Shown here: one piece after another, positions 2,751-13,213 of the stretch
How positions within the stretch are numbered: the stretch's first letter is position 1
Layout of the letters: every line of letters begins with the position of its first letter
Assembly: GCA_041671025.1 (NCBI GenBank)
Contig: JBAZCI010000020.1
Coordinates: 509 to 24,508, forward strand
Direction of reading: 5' to 3'
Length of the DNA stretch: 24,000 nt
Source: Patescibacteria group bacterium
GTDB taxonomy: Bacteria > Patescibacteriota > Patescibacteriia > UBA10025
Position numbers and translations under genes: made by a program
Notes under the pieces: generated by a model
Told to the model about the DNA's origin: nothing
What the model saw: the letters and a program-made list of their open reading frames with translations, nothing else
Database searches by the model: none

Positions 2751-5700
2751 CTAGTATGCGGGGAAAATAGTCAGACCGCCGCGGAATCCTTTGTGATGGG
2801 AGAAAAACTGTGAAAGTGCGCCACCATTGCGGGAAAAGGTACGGACCTGTGGACCCATTCCTGCCCCTGGTGCCGTCACGACCTCAGCTGTACCGTTGCC
2901 ATCAAGGTCGGCGACAAACGATGTGAAGTTCCCGCGAAGCCGCGAAGCATACGCGAAGAACTGTGATTTTACCTTGCCTGCTGAGCTGAAAACACGAACT
3001 TGCGGTCCCGCGGTGCTTATCGGTGAAACCACAACATCATTTGACCCATCGCCATCGACATCTCCGACTGAGACGTTCACGCCCCCGCGGAATGTAGAAG
3101 CGTACGCGAAGAAGCGCGAGAGTGTAGCCCCATTCTTATCAAAGACTGCAACCTGAGGACCATTGCCCGCCTTTGTGGAAACAACTATGTCATCATCGCC
3201 GTCTCCGTCCATATCACCAAGCGCGGCATTAAATCCTCCGCGAACGCCTGCAGCATAGGCATTAAATCTTTTAATCACCGTTCCGCTCGCTTCAAAGACG
3301 CCTACTTCCGGACCGGCGTTAGAATCCGGGACCGTAACAATTTCCGAGACACCGTCACCGTCTACATCACCGGTCAATGCTCTGGATCCTCCCCGGAAAC
3401 TTGAATTGTATGCGAAGAATTGGTGAATAACATTCCCACTGCGATTAAAGACACGGACCTGCGGACCTGCGCCCGCCATGGGCGAAGTAATGATCTCGTC
3501 TGTACCGTCTCCGTTGATATCAGCGGATGTCACGTGAATACCCGTTTTAATGGACTCGGGATAGGCGAAGAACTGAGATAGCAGTTTTCCGCTTTTATTG
3601 AATACACGGACCTGCGGACCTGCGCCGCTGCCCGGAGCAACGATAATCTCCTCGACACCGTCACCGTCTACATCACCGGTAACCGCCTCAATCCCGATAC
3701 GAAGGGTCGAGCTGTACGCGAAGAAATTAGCGAGTACTTTGCCGTTTTCATCTGCCAGAATCACCTGAGGTCCTCCGCTTGCCGCCGGCACCGCGAGAAT
3801 ATCAGCCGGCCCGCGGTTTGAACCCGCCGAGGCTCCTGAGACGAGCACAAAGGTCGTGAAATGGTTCGTCTGAATAGTAATCGTGTTGTTGTCATTGTCC
3901 TGCACGACACCGATAGGATTCTGGTAACTGCTGGTTGTCTCATCAAAAAACTTGCTGACCAGCGTACCCTCATCTATCCCCAACGCAGTCAACTGAGATT
4001 CAGAATACGGAAATTTGATCGTCACATTTGAATTAAATGTGGTGATTTCATTATTATCCGCATCAAGTGCTGTCAAGTCATACCCGACACCAAAGGGCTG
4101 TACATTTTTCATGCGGAAAAGATTGGTTACTGTCGGGTTTGCGCTAACGGTTACATTCGTTCCAGAATCGCCTAGTGCACCTGACGGTATCGTGATACTC
4201 GTGCCGTTCTCCAGATTAATGACCTGAGCCGTACCGGCATCAAATGTTGTGGTAACAGGAGCAGGAACAGTAAAGTTGGAAGCGGTGACCGGGAAATCCT
4301 TCGTAATGCTGGTCTGCGTCGTGATCGTTATGATCTCTTCATCAGACTGGTAGAATGACGTACCGTCAAAACTGTCAGCGCCGCAATGCCACGTTCCTGC
4401 GCGATAATTCACTGAATATGCGCCGCCAAACATGACCGGCCCGCCGGTAAATCCGCCGTTTTCTTCCCAACAATGTACAAATCCCATATTGAGGGGCGTA
4501 CCGGCAATTTTTACCGTCCCGCTCATTGTGCCTAGTGCCTTATCAAGCCGTAATGTGATATTGGCCGTCGATGCCGTACGCATATCAACTTTTTCAAAGT
4601 CAGCGGGAATAAATGCGCTGCCCGGCGGGAGGCCCATGCCTACTTCATAGCGATGACCCTTGAGCACGCCAAGAGAAAAAGTTCCGTCTGGATTTGTTTT
4701 TACATCAGAATGCAACTCGTTCTTGAAATTCTCGGGATTATTACCTTGACCCTCAAATTCGACCCAGTTACCAGCAAACACAAACGCATCCACGCCGTTT
4801 CCGTTCGGATCAACAACGCGTCCGGTGATCGTTGCATCCGCCTTATTGACTGTGAGATTCATCGTGGTGACTCCCACAGCAATGGTGATCGGTGTAGGAT
4901 CCGGGGGTTTCATCATAAAGCCGTTTGAAGACTCAATGAAATACCCCATGTGATACCCTTCGCCGGAGAGTAAACTGACGCTGTATGTACAGTCAGATCG
5001 AATCTCTCCGCCTTTCCATGAACCGCTCCGATCGAAATGAACATCGCCGAACCATCCTTTTGAAGAAACGCACGATGTAATGGTATGCCCATTTTGGTCA
5101 ATCAACCGGCCTTCCACTGTCGCATCATTTGCCTTGACCTGGATATTTTTTGTCGAAGTAGCATTGGCGAATACTGCGACATTCTGATTATCAACTGCAG
5201 AGTATGGGGCATTGGGAGGCGTATGAATGCTCAACGTATATGTTGAGGCTACGCTACTCGGAACACTAATACTGAAAGACCCATTCTGACAATTGACCGG
5301 CCCGCCATATCCGGGACCGAAACCGCCTATGCCCGAAGTTGCCGGCCGTGCCTCGACATACGCGCAAAATCCGCTCACAACATTGCCCGACATGTCTACA
5401 ACCGAGCCGCTAATGGTCGCGTCGGCAAAAGTGAGAACCATAGTAGGGACACTTACCGTAGAAGTCTCTGTGGGAACATCAACATCAACCGGCGGCCCAC
5501 TGTAGACATAGCGTTGATTGCGTCCCTGATCAATATTTACTCCCCACCGCCCTGAAGTAACGGCGAGCGTGAAATTTCCTTCTGAGTCACTTTGTGTATT
5601 ACTCCACCCGGGCTGTCCATGCATGAATGAATTGACGTACACACCACCGACACCCGTGCCGTCCGATTTGACGACCTTACCGACAATTTTCGCAGACTTG

Positions 5701-7409
5701 CTTTTCGCGGTTAGCGTGCCGATATCTTTTGCCTCATTGTCACCGATAGTAATATTTATTTCTGAAAACGTATACTGATTATCAGGACTAAATACGCTTA
5801 CCCGATACGATCCCGCCTGTACATTTACGGTAAATGTTCCGTCCGGTCGTACCTGCCCATTGTTGCCGATACCTTCTTGATTTCGTACATCAACATTTGC
5901 ATTCGTCATCGCCGATCCGTCCGGTTTCACCACTCTTCCCGTCACAGATGCGTTGGCTGTCTGCACAGTTAAGTTGAGTGTTTTGTTCTCCGTTGAGGAA
6001 TTACCAGAAAATTCTACCCGCTGAGGCGGACCGGAAAAAAACCAGTCAACCGCCTGTGATCCGGGCCCCATGTTTGGCGAGACCATAATATTCCAGAGTC
6101 CGCCTGAAAGTGCCAAGGTATAGTTACCGTTAGAATCCGTGGTTGTGTTACTGAACCCAAAGCCTCCATCCTTATTAGCATTGACCATAGCGCCTCCCAC
6201 CGGCGTACCGTTATTTTTCTTGACCTGTCCTACCAGAAATTTGGTAGCGCTTACAAATGTCAGATTTTTCGTAATGACGCCTGAGCTTATGGTAATTGTT
6301 TGCTGCTCAGGTGAAATAAGACCCGAGGATCCCCAGGGTGCCTGTACTTCAAGCTTGTAGGTCCCTGCGGGCAATCCACCTATCTGATACTGCCCATTTT
6401 GAGCGCTTTGAGCGGAAGAATTTGTCGTCCAGTCATCTGTATGCACCTGTACATTTGCATTTGCCGTGGGCGTTGAACCGTCCGGACCAAACACCGTGCC
6501 TACCACCTGCGCGGTGGTCAGCTTAATGACACCGACGTTGAGCAGTGTGCCAGACGTGACGCTCACACTTTTTGGAACTGCCGCTGTAAAAACTAAATTA
6601 TTGGGACGGCATTCAATCGTATATGCACCGGTAGGTAAGGTGCCGAATCTAAAACTGCCATCAACAGGATTTGCATTAGAATTTTTTTGTACCGTTCGAT
6701 CCTGATTAAAAATGTCGCAATTGACATTTCCCTGACTGAGATCAAGTGCATTGCCGTCTGGATCCTTCACTGTACCGATCACATTCGGAGTATCCAGACG
6801 AATAATCTGTCCGGTGACAGGGGTGCCGGAAAACGTAAGAGGCGTCTGTGAAGAAGTATACGCAGATCCCTGAGGAGGTTGTGCGTCAATGGTAAATGAC
6901 CCGTTCGGGATGCCGCCAAATTTAAAATTGCCGTTATCGTCCGTGCCTGTTCCCGTGTTAAATGTCCAATCGGCGGTACGGATCTGTACCCAGCTATTGC
7001 CGACTCGTGTCGTCCCGTCCGGTGCCGTAACATACCCCACGATACTCGGATTGGTCAGGTGAACAGCTCCCAAATTGACTGCGCTATCTCCAACATTGAT
7101 CTTAAACGGAGTCGGCCCTGCATAATCTCCGTCATTGCCTTGGTAAGCAATCTGCACTTCATACTGACCGGCGGAAATACTTCCGACCGAAAAAGCCCCA
7201 GTCGGGTCAATTGACGCACCATTGCCCGGCCCCGGAACCGTTGGATTAATACTGACATATCCTCCGGCCTGGGATAATGCCGCTCCCGAAGGACTAACGA
7301 TGGTTCCCGAAACAGCGACCGACGCTGACGCCGGCTGAGTGAACCCAAACGCTACTCCTAGAACAAGGAGTAATACCCCGAAACTCACCAGACAAATATT
7401 TTTTGTCAT
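2751..7409 (-). CDS. giant secreted/surface repeat protein (1552 aa): signal peptide, 11 carboxypeptidase-regulatory-like beta-sandwich modules, one HFTTF-ending beta-sandwich module, and a 7-blade FG-GAP/VCBS-like beta-propeller
   Basis: ORF 2751..7610 is trimmed to the ATG at 7409, which opens MTKNICLVSFGVLLLVLGVAFGFTQPASA (signal-peptide-like). The 67 upstream codons run through a promoter and a terminator. Eleven modules each open with a ..G.V....G motif (IVGYVTAPDG, VIGTVKDPDG, VTGRVVKPDG, ITGRVVDPNG and others). The C-terminal 353 aa are 51-aa repeats carrying GDVDGDG, GPQVRVF and FFAY. There is no LPXTG motif and no C-terminal TM segment. Confidence 0.85.
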   Translation of the reverse strand: MTKNICLVSFGVLLLVLGVAFGFTQPASASVAVSGTIVSPSGAALSQAGGYVSINPTVPGPGNGASIDPTGAFSVGSISAGQYEVQIAYQGNDGDYAGPTPFKINVGDSAVNLGAVHLTNPSIVGYVTAPDGTTRVGNSWVQIRTADWTFNTGTGTDDNGNFKFGGIPNGSFTIDAQPPQGSAYTSSQTPLTFSGTPVTGQIIRLDTPNVIGTVKDPDGNALDLSQGNVNCDIFNQDRTVQKNSNANPVDGSFRFGTLPTGAYTIECRPNNLVFTAAVPKSVSVTSGTLLNVGVIKLTTAQVVGTVFGPDGSTPTANANVQVHTDDWTTNSSAQSAQNGQYQIGGLPAGTYKLEVQAPWGSSGLISPEQQTITISSGVITKNLTFVSATKFLVGQVKKNNGTPVGGAMVNANKDGGFGFSNTTTDSNGNYTLALSGGLWNIMVSPNMGPGSQAVDWFFSGPPQRVEFSGNSSTENKTLNLTVQTANASVTGRVVKPDGSAMTNANVDVRNQEGIGNNGQVRPDGTFTVNVQAGSYRVSVFSPDNQYTFSEINITIGDNEAKDIGTLTAKSKSAKIVGKVVKSDGTGVGGVYVNSFMHGQPGWSNTQSDSEGNFTLAVTSGRWGVNIDQGRNQRYVYSGPPVDVDVPTETSTVSVPTMVLTFADATISGSVVDMSGNVVSGFCAYVEARPATSGIGGFGPGYGGPVNCQNGSFSISVPSSVASTYTLSIHTPPNAPYSAVDNQNVAVFANATSTKNIQVKANDATVEGRLIDQNGHTITSCVSSKGWFGDVHFDRSGSWKGGEIRSDCTYSVSLLSGEGYHMGYFIESSNGFMMKPPDPTPITIAVGVTTMNLTVNKADATITGRVVDPNGNGVDAFVFAGNWVEFEGQGNNPENFKNELHSDVKTNPDGTFSLGVLKGHRYEVGMGLPPGSAFIPADFEKVDMRTASTANITLRLDKALGTMSGTVKIAGTPLNMGFVHCWEENGGFTGGPVMFGGAYSVNYRAGTWHCGADSFDGTSFYQSDEEIITITTQTSITKDFPVTASNFTVPAPVTTTFDAGTAQVINLENGTSITIPSGALGDSGTNVTVSANPTVTNLFRMKNVQPFGVGYDLTALDADNNEITTFNSNVTIKFPYSESQLTALGIDEGTLVSKFFDETTSSYQNPIGVVQDNDNNTITIQTNHFTTFVLVSGASAGSNRGPADILAVPAASGGPQVILADENGKVLANFFAYSSTLRIGIEAVTGDVDGDGVEEIIVAPGSGAGPQVRVFNKSGKLLSQFFAYPESIKTGIHVTSADINGDGTDEIITSPMAGAGPQVRVFNRSGNVIHQFFAYNSSFRGGSRALTGDVDGDGVSEIVTVPDSNAGPEVGVFEASGTVIKRFNAYAAGVRGGFNAALGDMDGDGDDDIVVSTKAGNGPQVAVFDKNGATLSRFFAYASTFRGGVNVSVGDVDGDGSNDVVVSPISTAGPQVRVFSSAGKVKSQFFAYASRLRGNFTSFVADLDGNGTAEVVTAPGAGMGPQVRTFSRNGGALSQFFSHHKGFRGGLTIFPAY
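2754..3812 (-). repeat. in-frame tandem coding repeat, period 153 nt (51 aa): six full units plus a split unit (33 aa N-terminal part, 14 aa C-terminal part)
   Basis: I counted the units directly from the translation. Each has the pattern ..R.G.....GD.DGDG...(I/V)(I/V).....AGPQVRVF...G.....FFAY. The split unit is consistent with velcro closure of a 7-blade propeller. Confidence 0.8.
4290..7322 (-). repeat. 11 divergent tandem ~85-95-aa beta-sandwich modules (CarboxypepD_reg-like) inside the giant gene; boundaries approximate
   Basis: The module-opening motif recurs as hydrophobic-x-G-x-V-x-x-x-x-G, followed by D.NG.F/Y ... G.Y.(V/I) strands. The repeats are conserved at protein level but not at DNA level. 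Confidence 0.6.
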
Positions 7410-7449
7410 GAATGTGATCTTAATGATTATTGCTGAATGTAATAAATAC

Positions 7450-7479
7450 AAAAAAACCCTCTTATCGGGCGACAAGAAG
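7450..7479 (-). terminator. intrinsic terminator inside the 5' leader of the giant gene, 40 nt upstream of its ATG
   Basis: Minus-strand RNA reads CUUCUUGUC-GCCC-GAUAAGAGG (9-bp stem including 2 G-U pairs, tetraloop), followed by G and seven U (7456..7450). Confidence 0.65.
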
Positions 7480-7601
7480 CCTAGGAATATATATTCGATT
7501 GAATATCTGAAACTTTTGTCTTTTGTTTCTCTGCTTGGCCATCCCCCTAAGGCATTATCAAGCGAAATAGTTAAGCTAAACGTTTTTGAGCTTACCCCTG
7601 T

Positions 7602-7630
7602 AGTATACACTAAAAATTTGGCTAAGTCAA
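7602..7630 (-). promoter_or_regulatory. sigma70-type promoter, TTGACT (7630..7625) - 17 nt - TATACT (7607..7602)
   Basis: Hexamers and spacer were read directly. The predicted transcription start near 7595 lies about 185 nt upstream of the giant-gene ATG. Confidence 0.55.
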
Positions 7631-7694
7631 GCCTCTCCCCGGATCATACTGCATGATCTAGGCAATATATACCCGTTGGGCATGAAGAAAACTG

Positions 7695-8963
7695 CTAGCC
7701 CCGCAATTTCATCGCTTCAGCTATGCGCCCGATAGCGACTGCGTATGTTCCTATTCTCAGATCGGTTTTGTGCTGTTCAGCGGCACGCCATGTCGCATCA
7801 AAGCTTGAGGTCATTATTTTCTCCAACCGCTCCAATACGTCTTTTTGCGTCCACTGTGATCCTTCGCGATTTTGCATCCATTCAAAATAACTTCCCGTTA
7901 CTCCTCCCGCATTCGCTAACACATCGGGTACAACAGGGATGCCCCGACGGTGAAGTCTCACGTCAGCTTCGGGAGTAGTCGGTCCGTTTGCCATTTCCAC
8001 AATGGCTTTTGCCCGGATCTTTGATACATTTTTCCGGGTGATTTGATTTTCTAGCGCTGCGGGAATAAGAATGTCACACGGCGTTGTGAGAAGTTGTGCA
8101 TTGGTGATTGTTTTGAAATTGACGCAATCGCAAACCGTTCCGATGCAGTAGCATCCGTCAATTAATCCTTTTTCCTTTTTTGCCTTCATCACCATATCGG
8201 GATCCATGCTCTTCCCCTTCAGCGACAAGATACCTCCTCGTGAATCCGAGAGTGCAATAATCTGATATCCTTCGGCATACAACAGGCGCGCCGTATGATA
8301 CCCGACGTTACCGAATCCTTGAACAGCAACCCGCGTCTTTGCAGGAACCAGCTTTAATTTTTTTACCAATTGTTTGATGACCATGACACCGCCCTGTGCC
8401 GTAGAATCTTCACGGCCGTCTAATCCGCCTGCGGCAAGCGGCTTCCCCGTAAATGCTGCCGGCGTATATGCTCCGGCAAGCTTGCCATACTCATCGGCCA
8501 TCCATGCCATAATCGTCGGATTGGTGTACACATCCGGCGCGGGTACATCAACATCGGGTCCGAGAACAGGAAAAAAAGCATCGACCCATTGCCGGCTCAA
8601 ACGTTCCAATTCGCCAACACTCAAAACGCGTGGATCAACTTTCACACCGCCCTTGCCTCCGCCAAAAGGTATATTTGCAACAGCACACTTCACAGCCATC
8701 CAGAACGATAATGCCTTTACCTCGTTCAGGTTTACATCCGGGTGAAATCGAATACCGCCTTTGAACGGCCCTCGCGCATCATTATACTGCACCCGATAGC
8801 CGGTAAATACTTTCGTGGAACCGTCGTCCATCCGGAGAGGCAAAGAGACTTCAACAATCCGCTGAGGTTTTTTTAACCGTGCAACAACTGAACTGTCAAT
8901 CTGCAAATACGACAAAACGTTATCCAACTGTTCCATCGCTGAAGCAAACGGATTTGTGGCCAT
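7695..8963 (-). CDS. gdhA: NAD(P)-dependent glutamate dehydrogenase
   Basis: 422 aa. It has the Glu/Leu/Phe/Val dehydrogenase signatures KGGIRFHP and PFGGGKGG, plus the dinucleotide-binding motif VQGFGNVG. Confidence 0.9.
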   Translation of the reverse strand: MATNPFASAMEQLDNVLSYLQIDSSVVARLKKPQRIVEVSLPLRMDDGSTKVFTGYRVQYNDARGPFKGGIRFHPDVNLNEVKALSFWMAVKCAVANIPFGGGKGGVKVDPRVLSVGELERLSRQWVDAFFPVLGPDVDVPAPDVYTNPTIMAWMADEYGKLAGAYTPAAFTGKPLAAGGLDGREDSTAQGGVMVIKQLVKKLKLVPAKTRVAVQGFGNVGYHTARLLYAEGYQIIALSDSRGGILSLKGKSMDPDMVMKAKKEKGLIDGCYCIGTVCDCVNFKTITNAQLLTTPCDILIPAALENQITRKNVSKIRAKAIVEMANGPTTPEADVRLHRRGIPVVPDVLANAGGVTGSYFEWMQNREGSQWTQKDVLERLEKIMTSSFDATWRAAEQHKTDLRIGTYAVAIGRIAEAMKLRG

Positions 8964-9717: not shown

Positions 9718-9735
9718 TGTTTCACGTGGAACACT
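9718..9735. repeat. degenerate copy of the TGTTCCACGTGGAACAA palindrome (plus strand TTGTTTCACGTGGAACAC)
   Basis: It matches 16 of 17 core positions of the copies at 11259 and 12040. It lies 35 nt after the trmB-like stop and 9 nt upstream of the -35 box at 9703-9708. Confidence 0.7.
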
Positions 9736-11216: not shown

Positions 11217-11248
11217 AGCCTCTTTTTTCCAAAAGGGGCTTTTTTATT
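11217..11248 (+). terminator. intrinsic terminator after the 10631 gene
   Basis: AGCCTCTTTT-TTCC-AAAAGGGGCT (10-bp stem with one G-U pair, tetraloop), followed by TTTTTATT. It starts 2 nt after the stop. Confidence 0.75.
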
Positions 11249-11258
11249 ACCTATTTAC

Positions 11259-11282
11259 AATTGTTCCACGTGGAACAATTTT
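11259..11282. repeat. perfect 22-bp palindrome AATTGTTCCACGTGGAACAATT (+TT); copy 1 of the pair flanking udk
   Basis: Self-complementarity was checked base by base. Positions 11260-11282 are identical to 12040-12062. It lies 5 nt after the udk stop. Confidence 0.9.
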
Positions 11283-11285
11283 GGA

Positions 11286-12041
11286 TTACTCTTTTTTTTC
11301 ATCTACCCCAGTATCGTTATGGATAACGATAGATGCCAACTCCTTTTGCGGAACAACAAATTCTTCGGTTGCAGGTAAAACATTTTCTTGAAATCTTTTC
11401 TTCACAAGATCGGGATGTATACCCCGTTCTTCCGCATCTCTGTGCAATTTTCTTTCCAACAGTGTATCTGGCCGCGCATCAACATAAATTTTAAAAGGCG
11501 TATCCTGATGCACCTGATTTAAAGCATATACTCCTTCGATAATAATTCTACGTCGTACATGAAGTCTTTCCTGGCCAACTCTTTTGCTATGAGACATGCT
11601 GTATAACGGAACCTCTACGACATCGCCGACTTGTGCATTATTTATTTTTTCAATATCATCCTGTATCCTTTCCTGATCTAAAGCCTCAGGGATACTGAAA
11701 TTAACACGACCTTGCCGCCTTTTTTGTAATTCTGATCCCAGATAATACCTATCCAAAGACAGATGAGTTTCCTCATCAGGGGAATGTGCTATCTCCTTAA
11801 TCAAGGTATCTTTTCCTGATCCGGAAGGTCCAGCAATAATTATAAAGTTTTTCTCATCTGGGTGATCTGCTTCCCATTTTAGCATTGAGTTTACCAGCGC
11901 TTCAGAACCTTCAGTAAGATTCGCGTACTCCATCTTTTCAATGCCAAAATCCTGAGAGCTGTCCTCTCTTCCTACATCATGCTCAGAACCTAATTCAGGC
12001 ATACCTTTAAATTCATCAATAATATAGACATTTTTCCGCAT
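11286..12041 (-). CDS. udk: uridine kinase family protein (PRK/uridine kinase P-loop kinase) with an N-terminal extension of about 65 aa
   Basis: ORF 11286..12143 is trimmed to the ATG at 12041, because the upstream codons overlap tRNA-Ala. P-loop IIIAGPSGSGKDT. The motifs SLDRYY, NFSIPEALD, VEVPLYSMSHSKR, IIIEGVYAL and KIYVDARPDTLLERKLHRDAEERG parallel the uridine kinase motifs. Confidence 0.75.
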   Translation of the reverse strand: MRKNVYIIDEFKGMPELGSEHDVGREDSSQDFGIEKMEYANLTEGSEALVNSMLKWEADHPDEKNFIIIAGPSGSGKDTLIKEIAHSPDEETHLSLDRYYLGSELQKRRQGRVNFSIPEALDQERIQDDIEKINNAQVGDVVEVPLYSMSHSKRVGQERLHVRRRIIIEGVYALNQVHQDTPFKIYVDARPDTLLERKLHRDAEERGIHPDLVKKRFQENVLPATEEFVVPQKELASIVIHNDTGVDEKKE

Positions 12042-12062
12042 TGTTCCACGTGGAACAATTTT
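12040..12062. repeat. perfect 20-bp palindrome ATTGTTCCACGTGGAACAAT (+TTT); copy 2 of the pair flanking udk, overlapping the udk start codon
   Basis: It is identical over 23 nt to 11260-11282. The A and T of the udk ATG (12041, 12040) lie inside it. tRNA-Ala(CGC) ends at 12071. Confidence 0.9.
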
Positions 12063-12070
12063 CACTTTTT

Positions 12071-12141
12071 TGGACCTAGGGAGAATCGAACTCCCGTCTG
12101 AGCAATGCGAATGCCCCGTACTACCACTGTACGATAGGCCC
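12071..12141 (-). tRNA. tRNA-Ala (anticodon CGC), no encoded CCA
   Basis: Folded by hand. Acceptor GGGCCTA/TAGGTCC with G3:U70, D stem GTAC/GTAC, anticodon loop TTCGCAT, T arm GGGAG-TTCGATT-CTCCC. Confidence 0.85.
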
Positions 12142-12146
12142 ACAAG

Positions 12147-12219
12147 TGGACCTCAGGGGACTCGAACCCCTTACCTCTTCCATGCCATGGAAGCGCTCTA
12201 CCAGATGAGCTAGAGGCCC
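12147..12219 (-). tRNA. tRNA-Ala (anticodon GGC), no encoded CCA
   Basis: Folded by hand. Acceptor GGGCCTC/GAGGTCC with G3:U70, D arm GCTC-ATCTGGTA-GAGC, anticodon stem CTTCC/GGAAG with loop ATGGCAT, T arm AGGGG-TTCGAGT-CCCCT. Only 5 nt separate it from the next tRNA. Confidence 0.85.
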
Positions 12220-12242
12220 ATTAATAAAGTGATTGCGTTTCT

Positions 12243-12314
12243 TGCCCCCACCAGGAATTGAACCCAGATCCATCCCTTAGGACGGGATTGTTCTATCCAT
12301 TGAACTATGGGGGC
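12243..12314 (-). tRNA. tRNA-Arg (anticodon CCT), no encoded CCA
   Basis: Folded by hand. Acceptor GCCCCCA/TGGGGGC, D arm GTTC-AATGGATA-GAAC, anticodon stem ATCCC/GGGAT with loop GTCCTAA. The T stem contains two G-U pairs. Confidence 0.75.
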
Positions 12315-12327
12315 GGAAAGTTTTATT

Positions 12328-12358
12328 TCAAAGAAAAATAAAACCTGTAAAAACAGGT
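12328..12358 (-). terminator. candidate intrinsic terminator after the small membrane-protein gene
   Basis: Minus-strand RNA reads ACCUGU-UUUU-ACAGGU (6-bp stem), followed by UUUUAUUUUUCUUU. The stem is short. Confidence 0.4.
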
Positions 12359-12456
12359 GTTATTGCTAATTACTCTACAACTCGGATATAATTTCAGACT
12401 AATATACTACTTTTATAGATATTATCTATAATTAGCCAAAATAATGTGTCGTAAAA

Positions 12457-12684
12457 CTATTTTATTAAAGTACTTGAAATTTCTGATGAAATTCTTCCAA
12501 CGATCCCTGAGCTTTGATCATACATATACAGACCAAAGAGCAAAAGGACAATAGCTACAATGAGCGCAAGTGAACCTACCAGCTCCTTGCGTACGACACG
12601 GGATTCAACATCCCGCGATTGTGATTCAGCCGATAATTGCTCATTGTTCGCCATATCGTACATAGTGTACAAAGAAAACCTCAT
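12457..12684 (-). CDS. small single-pass membrane protein (up to 75 aa; start uncertain)
   Basis: One clear TM segment, LVGSLALIVAIVLLLFGLYMY. Several in-frame ATGs lie near the N-terminus. I recognised no family. Confidence 0.4.
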   Translation of the reverse strand: MRFSLYTMYDMANNEQLSAESQSRDVESRVVRKELVGSLALIVAIVLLLFGLYMYDQSSGIVGRISSEISSTLIK

Positions 12685-12760
12685 TTAATCAATGGATCGA
12701 GCGAGGTATAGGCAGCTAGGTGTACGAAGTTAAAACGGGACAATAAGCGTAAAACATCGT

Positions 12761-12789
12761 TTTGACATGCACAATCACGCATACTACAA
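12761..12789 (+). promoter_or_regulatory. sigma70-type promoter, TTGACA (12761-12766) - 17 nt - TACAAT (12784-12789)
   Basis: Read directly. It overlaps the first ATG of the ORF track (12767), which argues for the downstream start at 12824. Confidence 0.55.
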
Positions 12790-12823
12790 TGAGGACGCTC
12801 TCTACTATTTTTATCTAAAAAAT

Positions 12824-13213
12824 ATGTTTGAAAAAGATGCTCAAAAAACGATAGGCAAGGAGGTAGAAACCGTTATCGGACCGTCCGTGCGGGTCGAAGG
12901 AAACTTTACCGGCGAGGGAAATATTGTGATTGAAGGTTCAATCAGTGGGACACTCAAAACTCAGCATAACTTGCGAGTCGGCAAAGACGCCAAAGTGAAA
13001 GCTGATGTGCAGGCAGCAAATGTATATATTGCGGGTGAGGTCCGAGGAAACATGAAGGTTACAGAGAGAACCGAGATATTATCGACCGCGAAGATTTTTG
13101 GAAATGTTGAAACAAAGATTTTGTCAGTCGAGACCGGTGCAATTGTCCAGGGAAAAATAACGATGATTGCAGAAAATCGAGAACCGCAGATCGAGAAGCG
13201 TCCAAATAAATAA
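12824..13213 (+). CDS. bactofilin family cytoskeletal (polymer-forming) protein
   Basis: The beta-helix repeat pattern is typical of bactofilin (DUF583): IEGSISGTLKTQHNLRVGKDAKVKADVQAANVYIAGEVRGNMKVTERTEILSTAKIFGNVETKILSVETGAIVQGKI. The start was moved from 12767 to the first in-frame ATG after the promoter. Confidence 0.75.
   Translation: MFEKDAQKTIGKEVETVIGPSVRVEGNFTGEGNIVIEGSISGTLKTQHNLRVGKDAKVKADVQAANVYIAGEVRGNMKVTERTEILSTAKIFGNVETKILSVETGAIVQGKITMIAENREPQIEKRPNK

Follow-up and report, generated by a model that had tools for sequence, protein, structure and literature searches.

The 24-kb window analysed here is the whole stretch of 24,000 nucleotides taken from contig JBAZCI010000020.1 of an uncultured Patescibacteria group bacterium (assembly GCA_041671025.1). 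Beside a cluster of three tRNA genes, it contains a uridine kinase-like (udk-like) gene which is flanked by two copies of the same 23-nt repeat, ATTGTTCCACGTGGAACAATTTT. The identity of the copies was read directly from the sequence and ends sharply: the copies downstream and upstream of the gene are preceded by a and c, and followed by g and c, respectively. Each copy contains a perfect palindrome, 22 bp long on the downstream side and 20 bp long on the upstream side. Together with a third copy of the motif, these palindromes are very probably chromosomal parS sites, on which the partition protein ParB would be loaded. The features of the locus are collected in Table 1.

Table 1. Features of the window around the udk-like gene and the putative parS cluster
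Feature	Position	Strand	Extent or sequence	Remarks
Putative third parS site	9718-9733		TGTTTCACGTGGAACA (reverse complement TGTTCCACGTGAAACA)	Intergenic, between the TrmB-like and CsoR-like genes
Intrinsic terminator of orf194	11217-11249	+	AGCCTCTTTTTTCCAAAAGGGGCT, then T-run	Canonical
Putative parS site, core TGTTCCACGTGGAACA	11262-11277		Palindrome 11259-11280; 23-nt repeat 11260-11282	Convergent spacer orf194/udk-like gene
udk-like nucleoside kinase (PRK/uridine kinase family)	11286-12041	-		Pfam PF00485, E 1e-19; alternative start 12002
Putative parS site, core TGTTCCACGTGGAACA	12042-12057		Palindrome 12040-12059; 23-nt repeat 12040-12062	Between tRNA-Ala(CGC) and the udk-like gene
tRNA-Ala(CGC), tRNA-Ala(GGC), tRNA-Arg(CCT) cluster	12070-12314	-		ARAGORN; conserved landmark of the parS sites
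Bactofilin gene	12767-13213	+		Pfam PF04519, E 2.5e-25; divergent from the tRNA/parS cluster

The udk-like gene is the sole convincing open reading frame (ORF) between the two copies. Its stop codon (11286-11288) is separated from the downstream palindrome by 5 nt and from the end of the 23-mer by 3 nt, while the A and T of its called ATG (12039-12041) fall within the upstream copy. ARAGORN places the end of tRNA-Ala(CGC) at a distance of 7 nt from the 23-mer, or 10 nt if counted from the palindrome. The initial annotation, made from the letters of the window, had described this arrangement accurately. The identity of the repeats, the two palindrome lengths, the 5-nt gap after the stop codon (which applies to the palindrome edge) and the overlap with the called start codon all hold; only the 11 nt allotted to the tRNA spacer differ, trivially, from the distances given above. 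It had also stated that the pair encloses one ORF and nothing else. One convincing ORF is indeed enclosed, but the copy at 9718-9733 had been overlooked, and the pair thus belongs to a cluster instead of forming a bracket on its own.

Two points concern the gene itself. With the NCBIfam uridine kinase model it scores 108 bits, below the cut-off of 180 bits, and it is therefore best called udk-like. Its called start codon is uncertain: an alternative ATG at 12002-12000 (Met14) would give an N-terminus MPELGSEH..., resembling the MPIPLGEG... of the product of a syntenic relative (L001; the loci compared are designated here by L numbers). With translation starting at Met14, 40 nt would separate the upstream site from the start codon, and the site would fall in the 5' leader or promoter region.

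The three sites (9718, 11262 and 12042) span 2.3 kb and are all intergenic. When up to three mismatches to the 16-mer core are allowed, the 24-kb window contains three matches where 0.08 are expected, and none of 100 shuffles reaches three. Beyond these three, no further copy was found in the window, even at this tolerance.

The motif corresponds to a well-described element. ParB/Spo0J binds the conserved chromosomal parS consensus, TGTTNCACGTGAAACA, which is given for a wide range of bacteria, among them Bacillus subtilis and Corynebacterium (PMC7022226). The core of the two flanking sites, TGTTCCACGTGGAACA, matches this consensus except for the symmetric base G at position 12. It is also one base apart from the form of Myxococcus xanthus, TGTTCCACGTGGAACG (PMC7022226), with which it shares the G at position 12. 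The 9718-9733 site, read on the reverse strand (TGTTCCACGTGAAACA), has zero mismatches to the published consensus. All three sites fit the pattern TGTTNCACGTGNAACA, which is the published consensus with position 12 left free, at 0 mismatches, whereas 0.13 such matches are expected in the window. The initial annotation, which did not recognise the motif as the site of any known regulator, was thus mistaken on this point, the motif being that of chromosomal parS (PMC7022226).

Motif identity, clustering, positional conservation, proximity to the origin in some relatives and linkage of the 20-mer to parA/parB elsewhere were each observed directly, and they point with high probability to a three-site parS cluster loaded by ParB in this Patescibacteria genome, a member of the Candidate Phyla Radiation (CPR). 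The flanking repeats are an ordinary feature of a known kind, neither a new regulator site nor a mobile cassette. The three sites are best read as the partition-complex nucleation zone of the chromosome, or as one such zone. We infer that a ParB protein is present in this genome and binds to them.

The positional conservation was determined at the same locus in relatives. A scan of the GTDB genomes with the single udk-like protein returned no relative, and GDH was therefore taken as the anchor, yielding loci that total 1.27 Mb. These GDH-anchored loci are closest (55-64% identity) to metagenome-assembled genomes (MAGs) of Patescibacteria, assigned to Kerfeldbacteria, Parcubacteria, Paceibacter, Komeilibacteria and the 'Patescibacteria group'. 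Some third-party annotation (TPA) assemblies among them bear the label 'uncultured Gammaproteobacteria', probably a placeholder mislabel, because those loci have the common synteny. The shared gene order runs from infB-rbfA or dnaN-dnaA-rnpA-yidC through a lipid-kinase-like gene (DAGK) and bactofilin to tRNA-Arg(CCT), tRNA-Ala and tRNA-Ala. Variable genes (udk, TrmB-like, CsoR-like) follow, and then thioredoxin (Trx), sometimes TrxR, and GDH.

Perfect 16-mers are found at the syntenic locus of L001, L003, L006-L010, L011, L013, L015, L016, L017, L018, L027 and L104/L126. In these relatives GDH is 53-65% identical and the intergenic flanks are otherwise unalignable. Perfect cores within diverged intergenic DNA, at the same locus of at least 10 distinct relatives, fit purifying selection on these positions. 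Moreover, every site at one mismatch or less in the 1.27 Mb falls in the tRNA-Arg/Ala/Ala region of those relatives. The motif is not scattered without positional bias, as it would be if it were the generic repeat that the initial annotation had considered; within the 24-kb window and the 1.27 Mb of loci, the sites occur only at this syntenic tRNA locus.

The number of sites and the spacers they occupy vary across the tRNA cluster. In L011, three perfect sites are interspersed among the three tRNAs; two are present in each of L013 and L015, one on either side of tRNA-Ala(CGC). One perfect site accompanied by degenerate ones is found in L016, L017, L018 and L027, and two perfect and two degenerate sites lie within 1.3 kb in L104 and L126. 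The same three tRNAs stand among or beside the sites in L011, L015, L016, L017, L018, L027 and L104, while L013 shows only two tRNA-Ala. Such variability fits a regional (centromere) requirement better than the control of one promoter.

Relatives that bear both udk and parS are L001, L003 and L006-L010. L001 reproduces all three positions of the window: a site upstream of udk (171-186), one downstream (941-956, 1 mismatch) and one just upstream of the CsoR-like gene (5424-5439), which is the orthologue of the site at 9718-9733. The upstream site has its orthologue at 565-580 in L006-L010, and L006 also has a downstream site at 1410-1425 with two mismatches. L003, in which udk directly follows tRNA-Ala(CGC), lacks the upstream site and has the downstream one alone (865-880, perfect). 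By comparison, L011, L015, L017, L018 and L104 carry the sites with neither udk nor TrmB, and most relatives have sites without TrmB. No parS was found at the udk homologues sited elsewhere in genomes (L002, L004, L005). This comparison of the tRNA-Arg/Ala/Ala locus, which the initial annotation had proposed, shows that the sites are kept with or without udk, and therefore that they go with the tRNA region, independently of udk. It follows that udk is enclosed because the sites occupy the short spacers of a conserved tRNA/parS region, into which, in one sub-lineage, a udk-like gene falls between two of them.

Outside this group, at least 120 public metagenome contigs, with a GC content of 0.24-0.67, contain the exact 20-mer ATTGTTCCACGTGGAACAAT. 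At least two parS sites are present in 54 of the 120 contigs listed. In 23 of these 120, parA or parB lies no more than 560 bp from the 20-mer (within ~100 bp in 18 of the 23), and the 20-mer is frequently located in the classic gidB-parA spacer. The ParA and ParB calls were made with local hidden Markov models (HMMs) built from genes in those contigs; with a median locus of only 3.9 kb, the proportion of 23/120 is a lower bound. The GDH-anchored loci, used as a control, gave no ParA or ParB signature in 1.27 Mb. Dense arrays are also seen among the metagenome contigs: L157 (GC 0.38) has seven parS sites in ~900 bp (385-1291), and L155 has four exact 20-mers at ~75 bp spacing (2694-2935).

The bases around the core are conserved as well. 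A pool of 28 sites (56 half-sites) was assembled from the window, L001, L003, L006, L011, L013, L015-L018, L027 and L104. Among these half-sites, 44 have A at position -2 and 53 have A or T at position -1; A also prevails at positions -3 and -4. The extended consensus of the lineage is approximately aaAW-TGTTCCACGTGGAACA-WTtt. The 23-mer of the window (AT + core + ATTTT) is close to it, and the flanks in L003 are the same (aaat...attttt). The 23-nt identity is therefore largely explained by this extended consensus, not by duplication of a cassette; a duplication may have occurred but is not needed. The symmetry of the flanks suggests a recognition or DNA-shape preference that would extend beyond the 16-bp core. 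Among nine variant sites of the pool, seven are altered on one side only, which breaks the palindrome.

Proximity to the replication origin, as expected of parS, is found in some relatives. A DnaA Walker motif, detected by a signature regular expression, lies 3.5-5 kb from the parS sites in L017, L018 and L027, and the origin-proximal placement therefore holds in these three. Pfam searches identified dnaN-dnaA and yidC in L017 and L027, and rnpA in L017. In the window itself, gene orientation diverges at ~12.4 kb: the minus strand carries 10 of the 11 genes on the left, and the plus strand 10 of the 11 on the right. The spacer at the point of divergence (~12315-12766, 452 bp) has a GC content of 0.356, and a local change in the sign of the GC skew makes it look origin-like; the skew is not clean across the window and is negative again at 16-19 kb.

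Several observations weigh against the assignment of the sites as a functional centromere. The window has infB-rbfA beside bactofilin in place of the dnaA-rnpA-yidC block; dnaA is absent from the window, and there is no cluster of DnaA boxes (TTATCCACA, up to one mismatch: five matches versus 5.4 expected). Such a cluster is also missing in the dnaA-adjacent relatives. A search by motif regular expressions and with a local HMM for ParB/ParA found no gene for ParB, ParA or SMC in the 24-kb window, in a ~7-kb extension on the left or in the syntenic loci of relatives. That extension was obtained via identical proteins in other assemblies and adds a sensor kinase, a response regulator, a LysM-M23 peptidase and a large protein; nothing new was gained on the right. 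L020, a Komeilibacteria MAG, keeps the order bactofilin - tRNA-Ala/Arg/Ala - Trx - GDH (6100-8400) with no parS even at two mismatches, and that lineage would therefore have lost or relocated its centromere sites. Symmetric double changes, the pattern expected if pairing mattered, are seen in two of the nine variants, TGTTCTACGTAGAACA (L017:7273) and TTTTCCACGTGGAAAA (L104:3245); hairpin-templated mutation or chance may be the cause. Finally, no literature on ParABS, ParB or parS in Patescibacteria, CPR or Saccharibacteria was found in the library searched.

A palindrome that overlaps a start codon could also be an operator, and the sites might then belong to the TrmB-like or another dimeric regulator controlling udk and its neighbours, the copy on the udk start blocking initiation. 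The palindromic sites would suit a dimeric helix-turn-helix protein, and the upstream one overlaps the called ATG. In addition, a promoter-like match for the CsoR-Trx-GDH genes (TTGACA-17-TAACAT, minus strand, 9708-9680) lies just downstream of the 9718 site, which touches its -35 hexamer. This explanation is nevertheless very unlikely. The motif is a pan-bacterial parS that adjoins parA/parB in unrelated contigs, relatives carry the sites without TrmB or udk, and the positions shift among the spacers of the tRNA cluster, tracking no single promoter. The udk start is itself uncertain, and Met14 would leave the site upstream of the gene. An operator of TrmB was rejected as a candidate, as the sites and TrmB do not co-occur. 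The initial annotation, which had proposed operators for an unnamed dimeric regulator, was right in expecting a site for a dimeric DNA-binding protein; the motif is, however, the known parS bound by ParB, whose main role is segregation and not operator control. Effects of ParB-parS on nearby expression have been reported, namely the repression of promoters beside parS3 and parS4 in Pseudomonas aeruginosa and the modulation of competence in Streptococcus pneumoniae (PMC5521831, PMC4488948), so that the expression of udk might be influenced as a side effect.

The two remaining proposals of the initial annotation, RNA hairpins and the boundaries of a mobile cassette, are not supported. As hairpins, the palindromes would sequester the AUG of udk and would end, stabilise or process a transcript common to the tRNAs and udk. 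Each flanking copy can form a stem of 8-9 bp with a 4-nt loop on the udk-sense strand, a T-run comes after the downstream site on that strand in L001 and L003, and the symmetric variants mentioned above also fit pairing. The fold is weak, however (-9.4 to -10.3 kcal/mol), the T-tails in the window are antisense to udk and the tRNAs, and the third site does not fold (z = +1.9). The sole terminator call at the palindromes is on the plus strand at 12040, with no gene upstream, and orf194 has a terminator of its own, so termination there does not require the neighbouring palindrome. Diverged relatives keep the stem sequence unchanged, seven of the nine variants are uncompensated, and hairpins would leave unexplained why this sequence is linked to parAB operons in other phyla. 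An intrinsic terminator or structured RNA was accordingly rejected on the weak fold, the antisense T-tails and the absence of covariation in those seven variants, and we give it hardly any credence. A single-gene udk cassette, inserted beside the tRNA genes with the repeats as its att-like direct-repeat ends, appears equally far-fetched. It would account for a 23-nt direct identity that flanks exactly one gene beside tRNAs, for the lack of udk at the locus in many relatives and for the homologues in several unrelated contexts. Yet relatives that lack udk at the locus have the repeats all the same, there flanking tRNAs; L003 has udk with a single site; and in both L001 and L006 the upstream and downstream sites are unlike in core as well as in flanks. 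No integrase or recombinase domain was found in the window, and the syntenic udk orthologues are only 47-50% identical, implying a long residence. An att-flanked island was hence rejected: neither a recombinase in the window nor repeats confined to the junctions were found, and the atypical composition that was found is family-wide.

This composition had been noticed by eye in the initial annotation, which described udk as AT-rich, and the calculation bears it out. The gene has a GC content of 0.396 versus 0.473 for the window, and it falls in the 2nd percentile of all 756-bp windows. Its GC content at third codon positions (GC3) is 0.313, about three standard deviations (sd) below the mean of 0.477 (sd 0.055, 20 genes); it is the most AT-rich gene of the window. 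The GC3 of the udk family is, however, the lowest or near-lowest among neighbouring genes in all six other contexts, with or without palindromes (for instance 0.23 vs 0.51 in L003 and 0.47 vs 0.67 in L005). The composition is therefore not tied to the palindromes and provides no argument for a recent insertion. Low expression, codon preference or frequent transfer could be the cause. The family is small, with only nine homologues in a collection of 5.8 billion proteins; these are 34-53% identical, except for an identical JGI entry, P0001, on a 24.5-kb contig. An exact look-up of the udk-like protein gave no record.

Two other features of the window were recorded. A further perfect palindrome, ACCTGTAAAAACAGGT, lies just upstream of tRNA-Arg (12343-12358), has T-runs on both strands and looks like a bidirectional terminator. 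The minus strand also encodes a protein of 1619 aa (2751-7610) with five CarboxypepD_reg-like domains and FG-GAP repeats, 67% identical in L001, which is probably a surface protein.

ParB dimers are described as recognising parS, closing as CTP-dependent clamps and spreading to the neighbouring DNA, the resulting complex being moved by ParA and loading SMC (PMC8494293, PMC8299390). Transferred from ParABS to this organism, a ParB dimer would bind each 16-bp palindrome through its helix-turn-helix domains, close as a CTP-dependent clamp and slide onto the flanking DNA, accumulating across several kb. The complex would then be moved by ParA and/or load SMC, so that the origin-proximal region is segregated and organised. 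Speculatively, loading on either side of udk and of the strongly transcribed tRNA genes might help ParB to occupy the region in spite of transcriptional roadblocks.

The finding is first of all a correction of the annotation: a motif flagged as unrecognised is the standard bacterial centromere. It marks a probable ParB loading region in an uncultured CPR genome, with parS conserved inside a tRNA cluster beside bactofilin and, in some lineages, beside dnaA-rnpA-yidC. This could provide a handle for locating origin regions and for studying chromosome segregation in Patescibacteria.

Bactofilin, followed by a DAGK/YegS-like lipid kinase gene, adjoins the tRNA/parS cluster across Patescibacteria (L011, L015, L017, L018, L020, L027, L104 and L126). 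In Myxococcus, bactofilins (the BacNOP/PadC scaffold) position the ParB-parS complexes (PMC5703909). By analogy, the Patescibacteria centromere might consist of a parS array within the tRNA-Arg/Ala/Ala cluster that is coupled to the bactofilin gene, adjacent at no fewer than eight loci. A bactofilin polymer would then anchor or position ParB-parS in these ultrasmall cells, as BacNOP/PadC does in Myxococcus and, with no parAB adjacent, perhaps without ParA. As a second possibility, a weaker one, ParB clamps to either side of udk might tune the expression of this CMP/UMP-salvage kinase; if true, this would couple ParB, which depends on CTP, to the supply of CTP in organisms reliant on nucleotide salvage. 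A functional link of bactofilin with the centromere in CPR, or such a ParB-dependent tuning of a CTP-salvage kinase gene, is improbable in our estimation. What suggests bactofilin as part of the system is its gene neighbourhood, and the adjacency may be mere conserved synteny.

Compared with known systems, the sites resemble those of Spo0J in B. subtilis (TGTTNCACGTGAAACA): 16-bp palindromes centred on CACGTG, present in several copies and located near dnaA in some relatives. They differ in being packed in 2.3 kb beside a tRNA cluster, with no adjacent parAB operon and with an additional symmetric A/T preference in the flanks. The array of M. xanthus (22 sites, TGTTCCACGTGGAACG; PMC7022226) shares the GG/CC core variant, one base off, as well as the dense clustering, and bactofilin adjoins in the present case; there are only three sites in the window, no PadC-like adaptor was seen there, and the link to bactofilin is one of gene neighbourhood alone. 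The parS sites of the gidB-parA region in Proteobacteria, Acidobacteria and others have the identical 20-mer, ATTGTTCCACGTGGAACAAT, often as tandem pairs within ~100 bp of parA, whereas the Patescibacteria sites stand apart from parAB genes and lie after yidC/DAGK/bactofilin, in the position that parAB would take in many bacteria.

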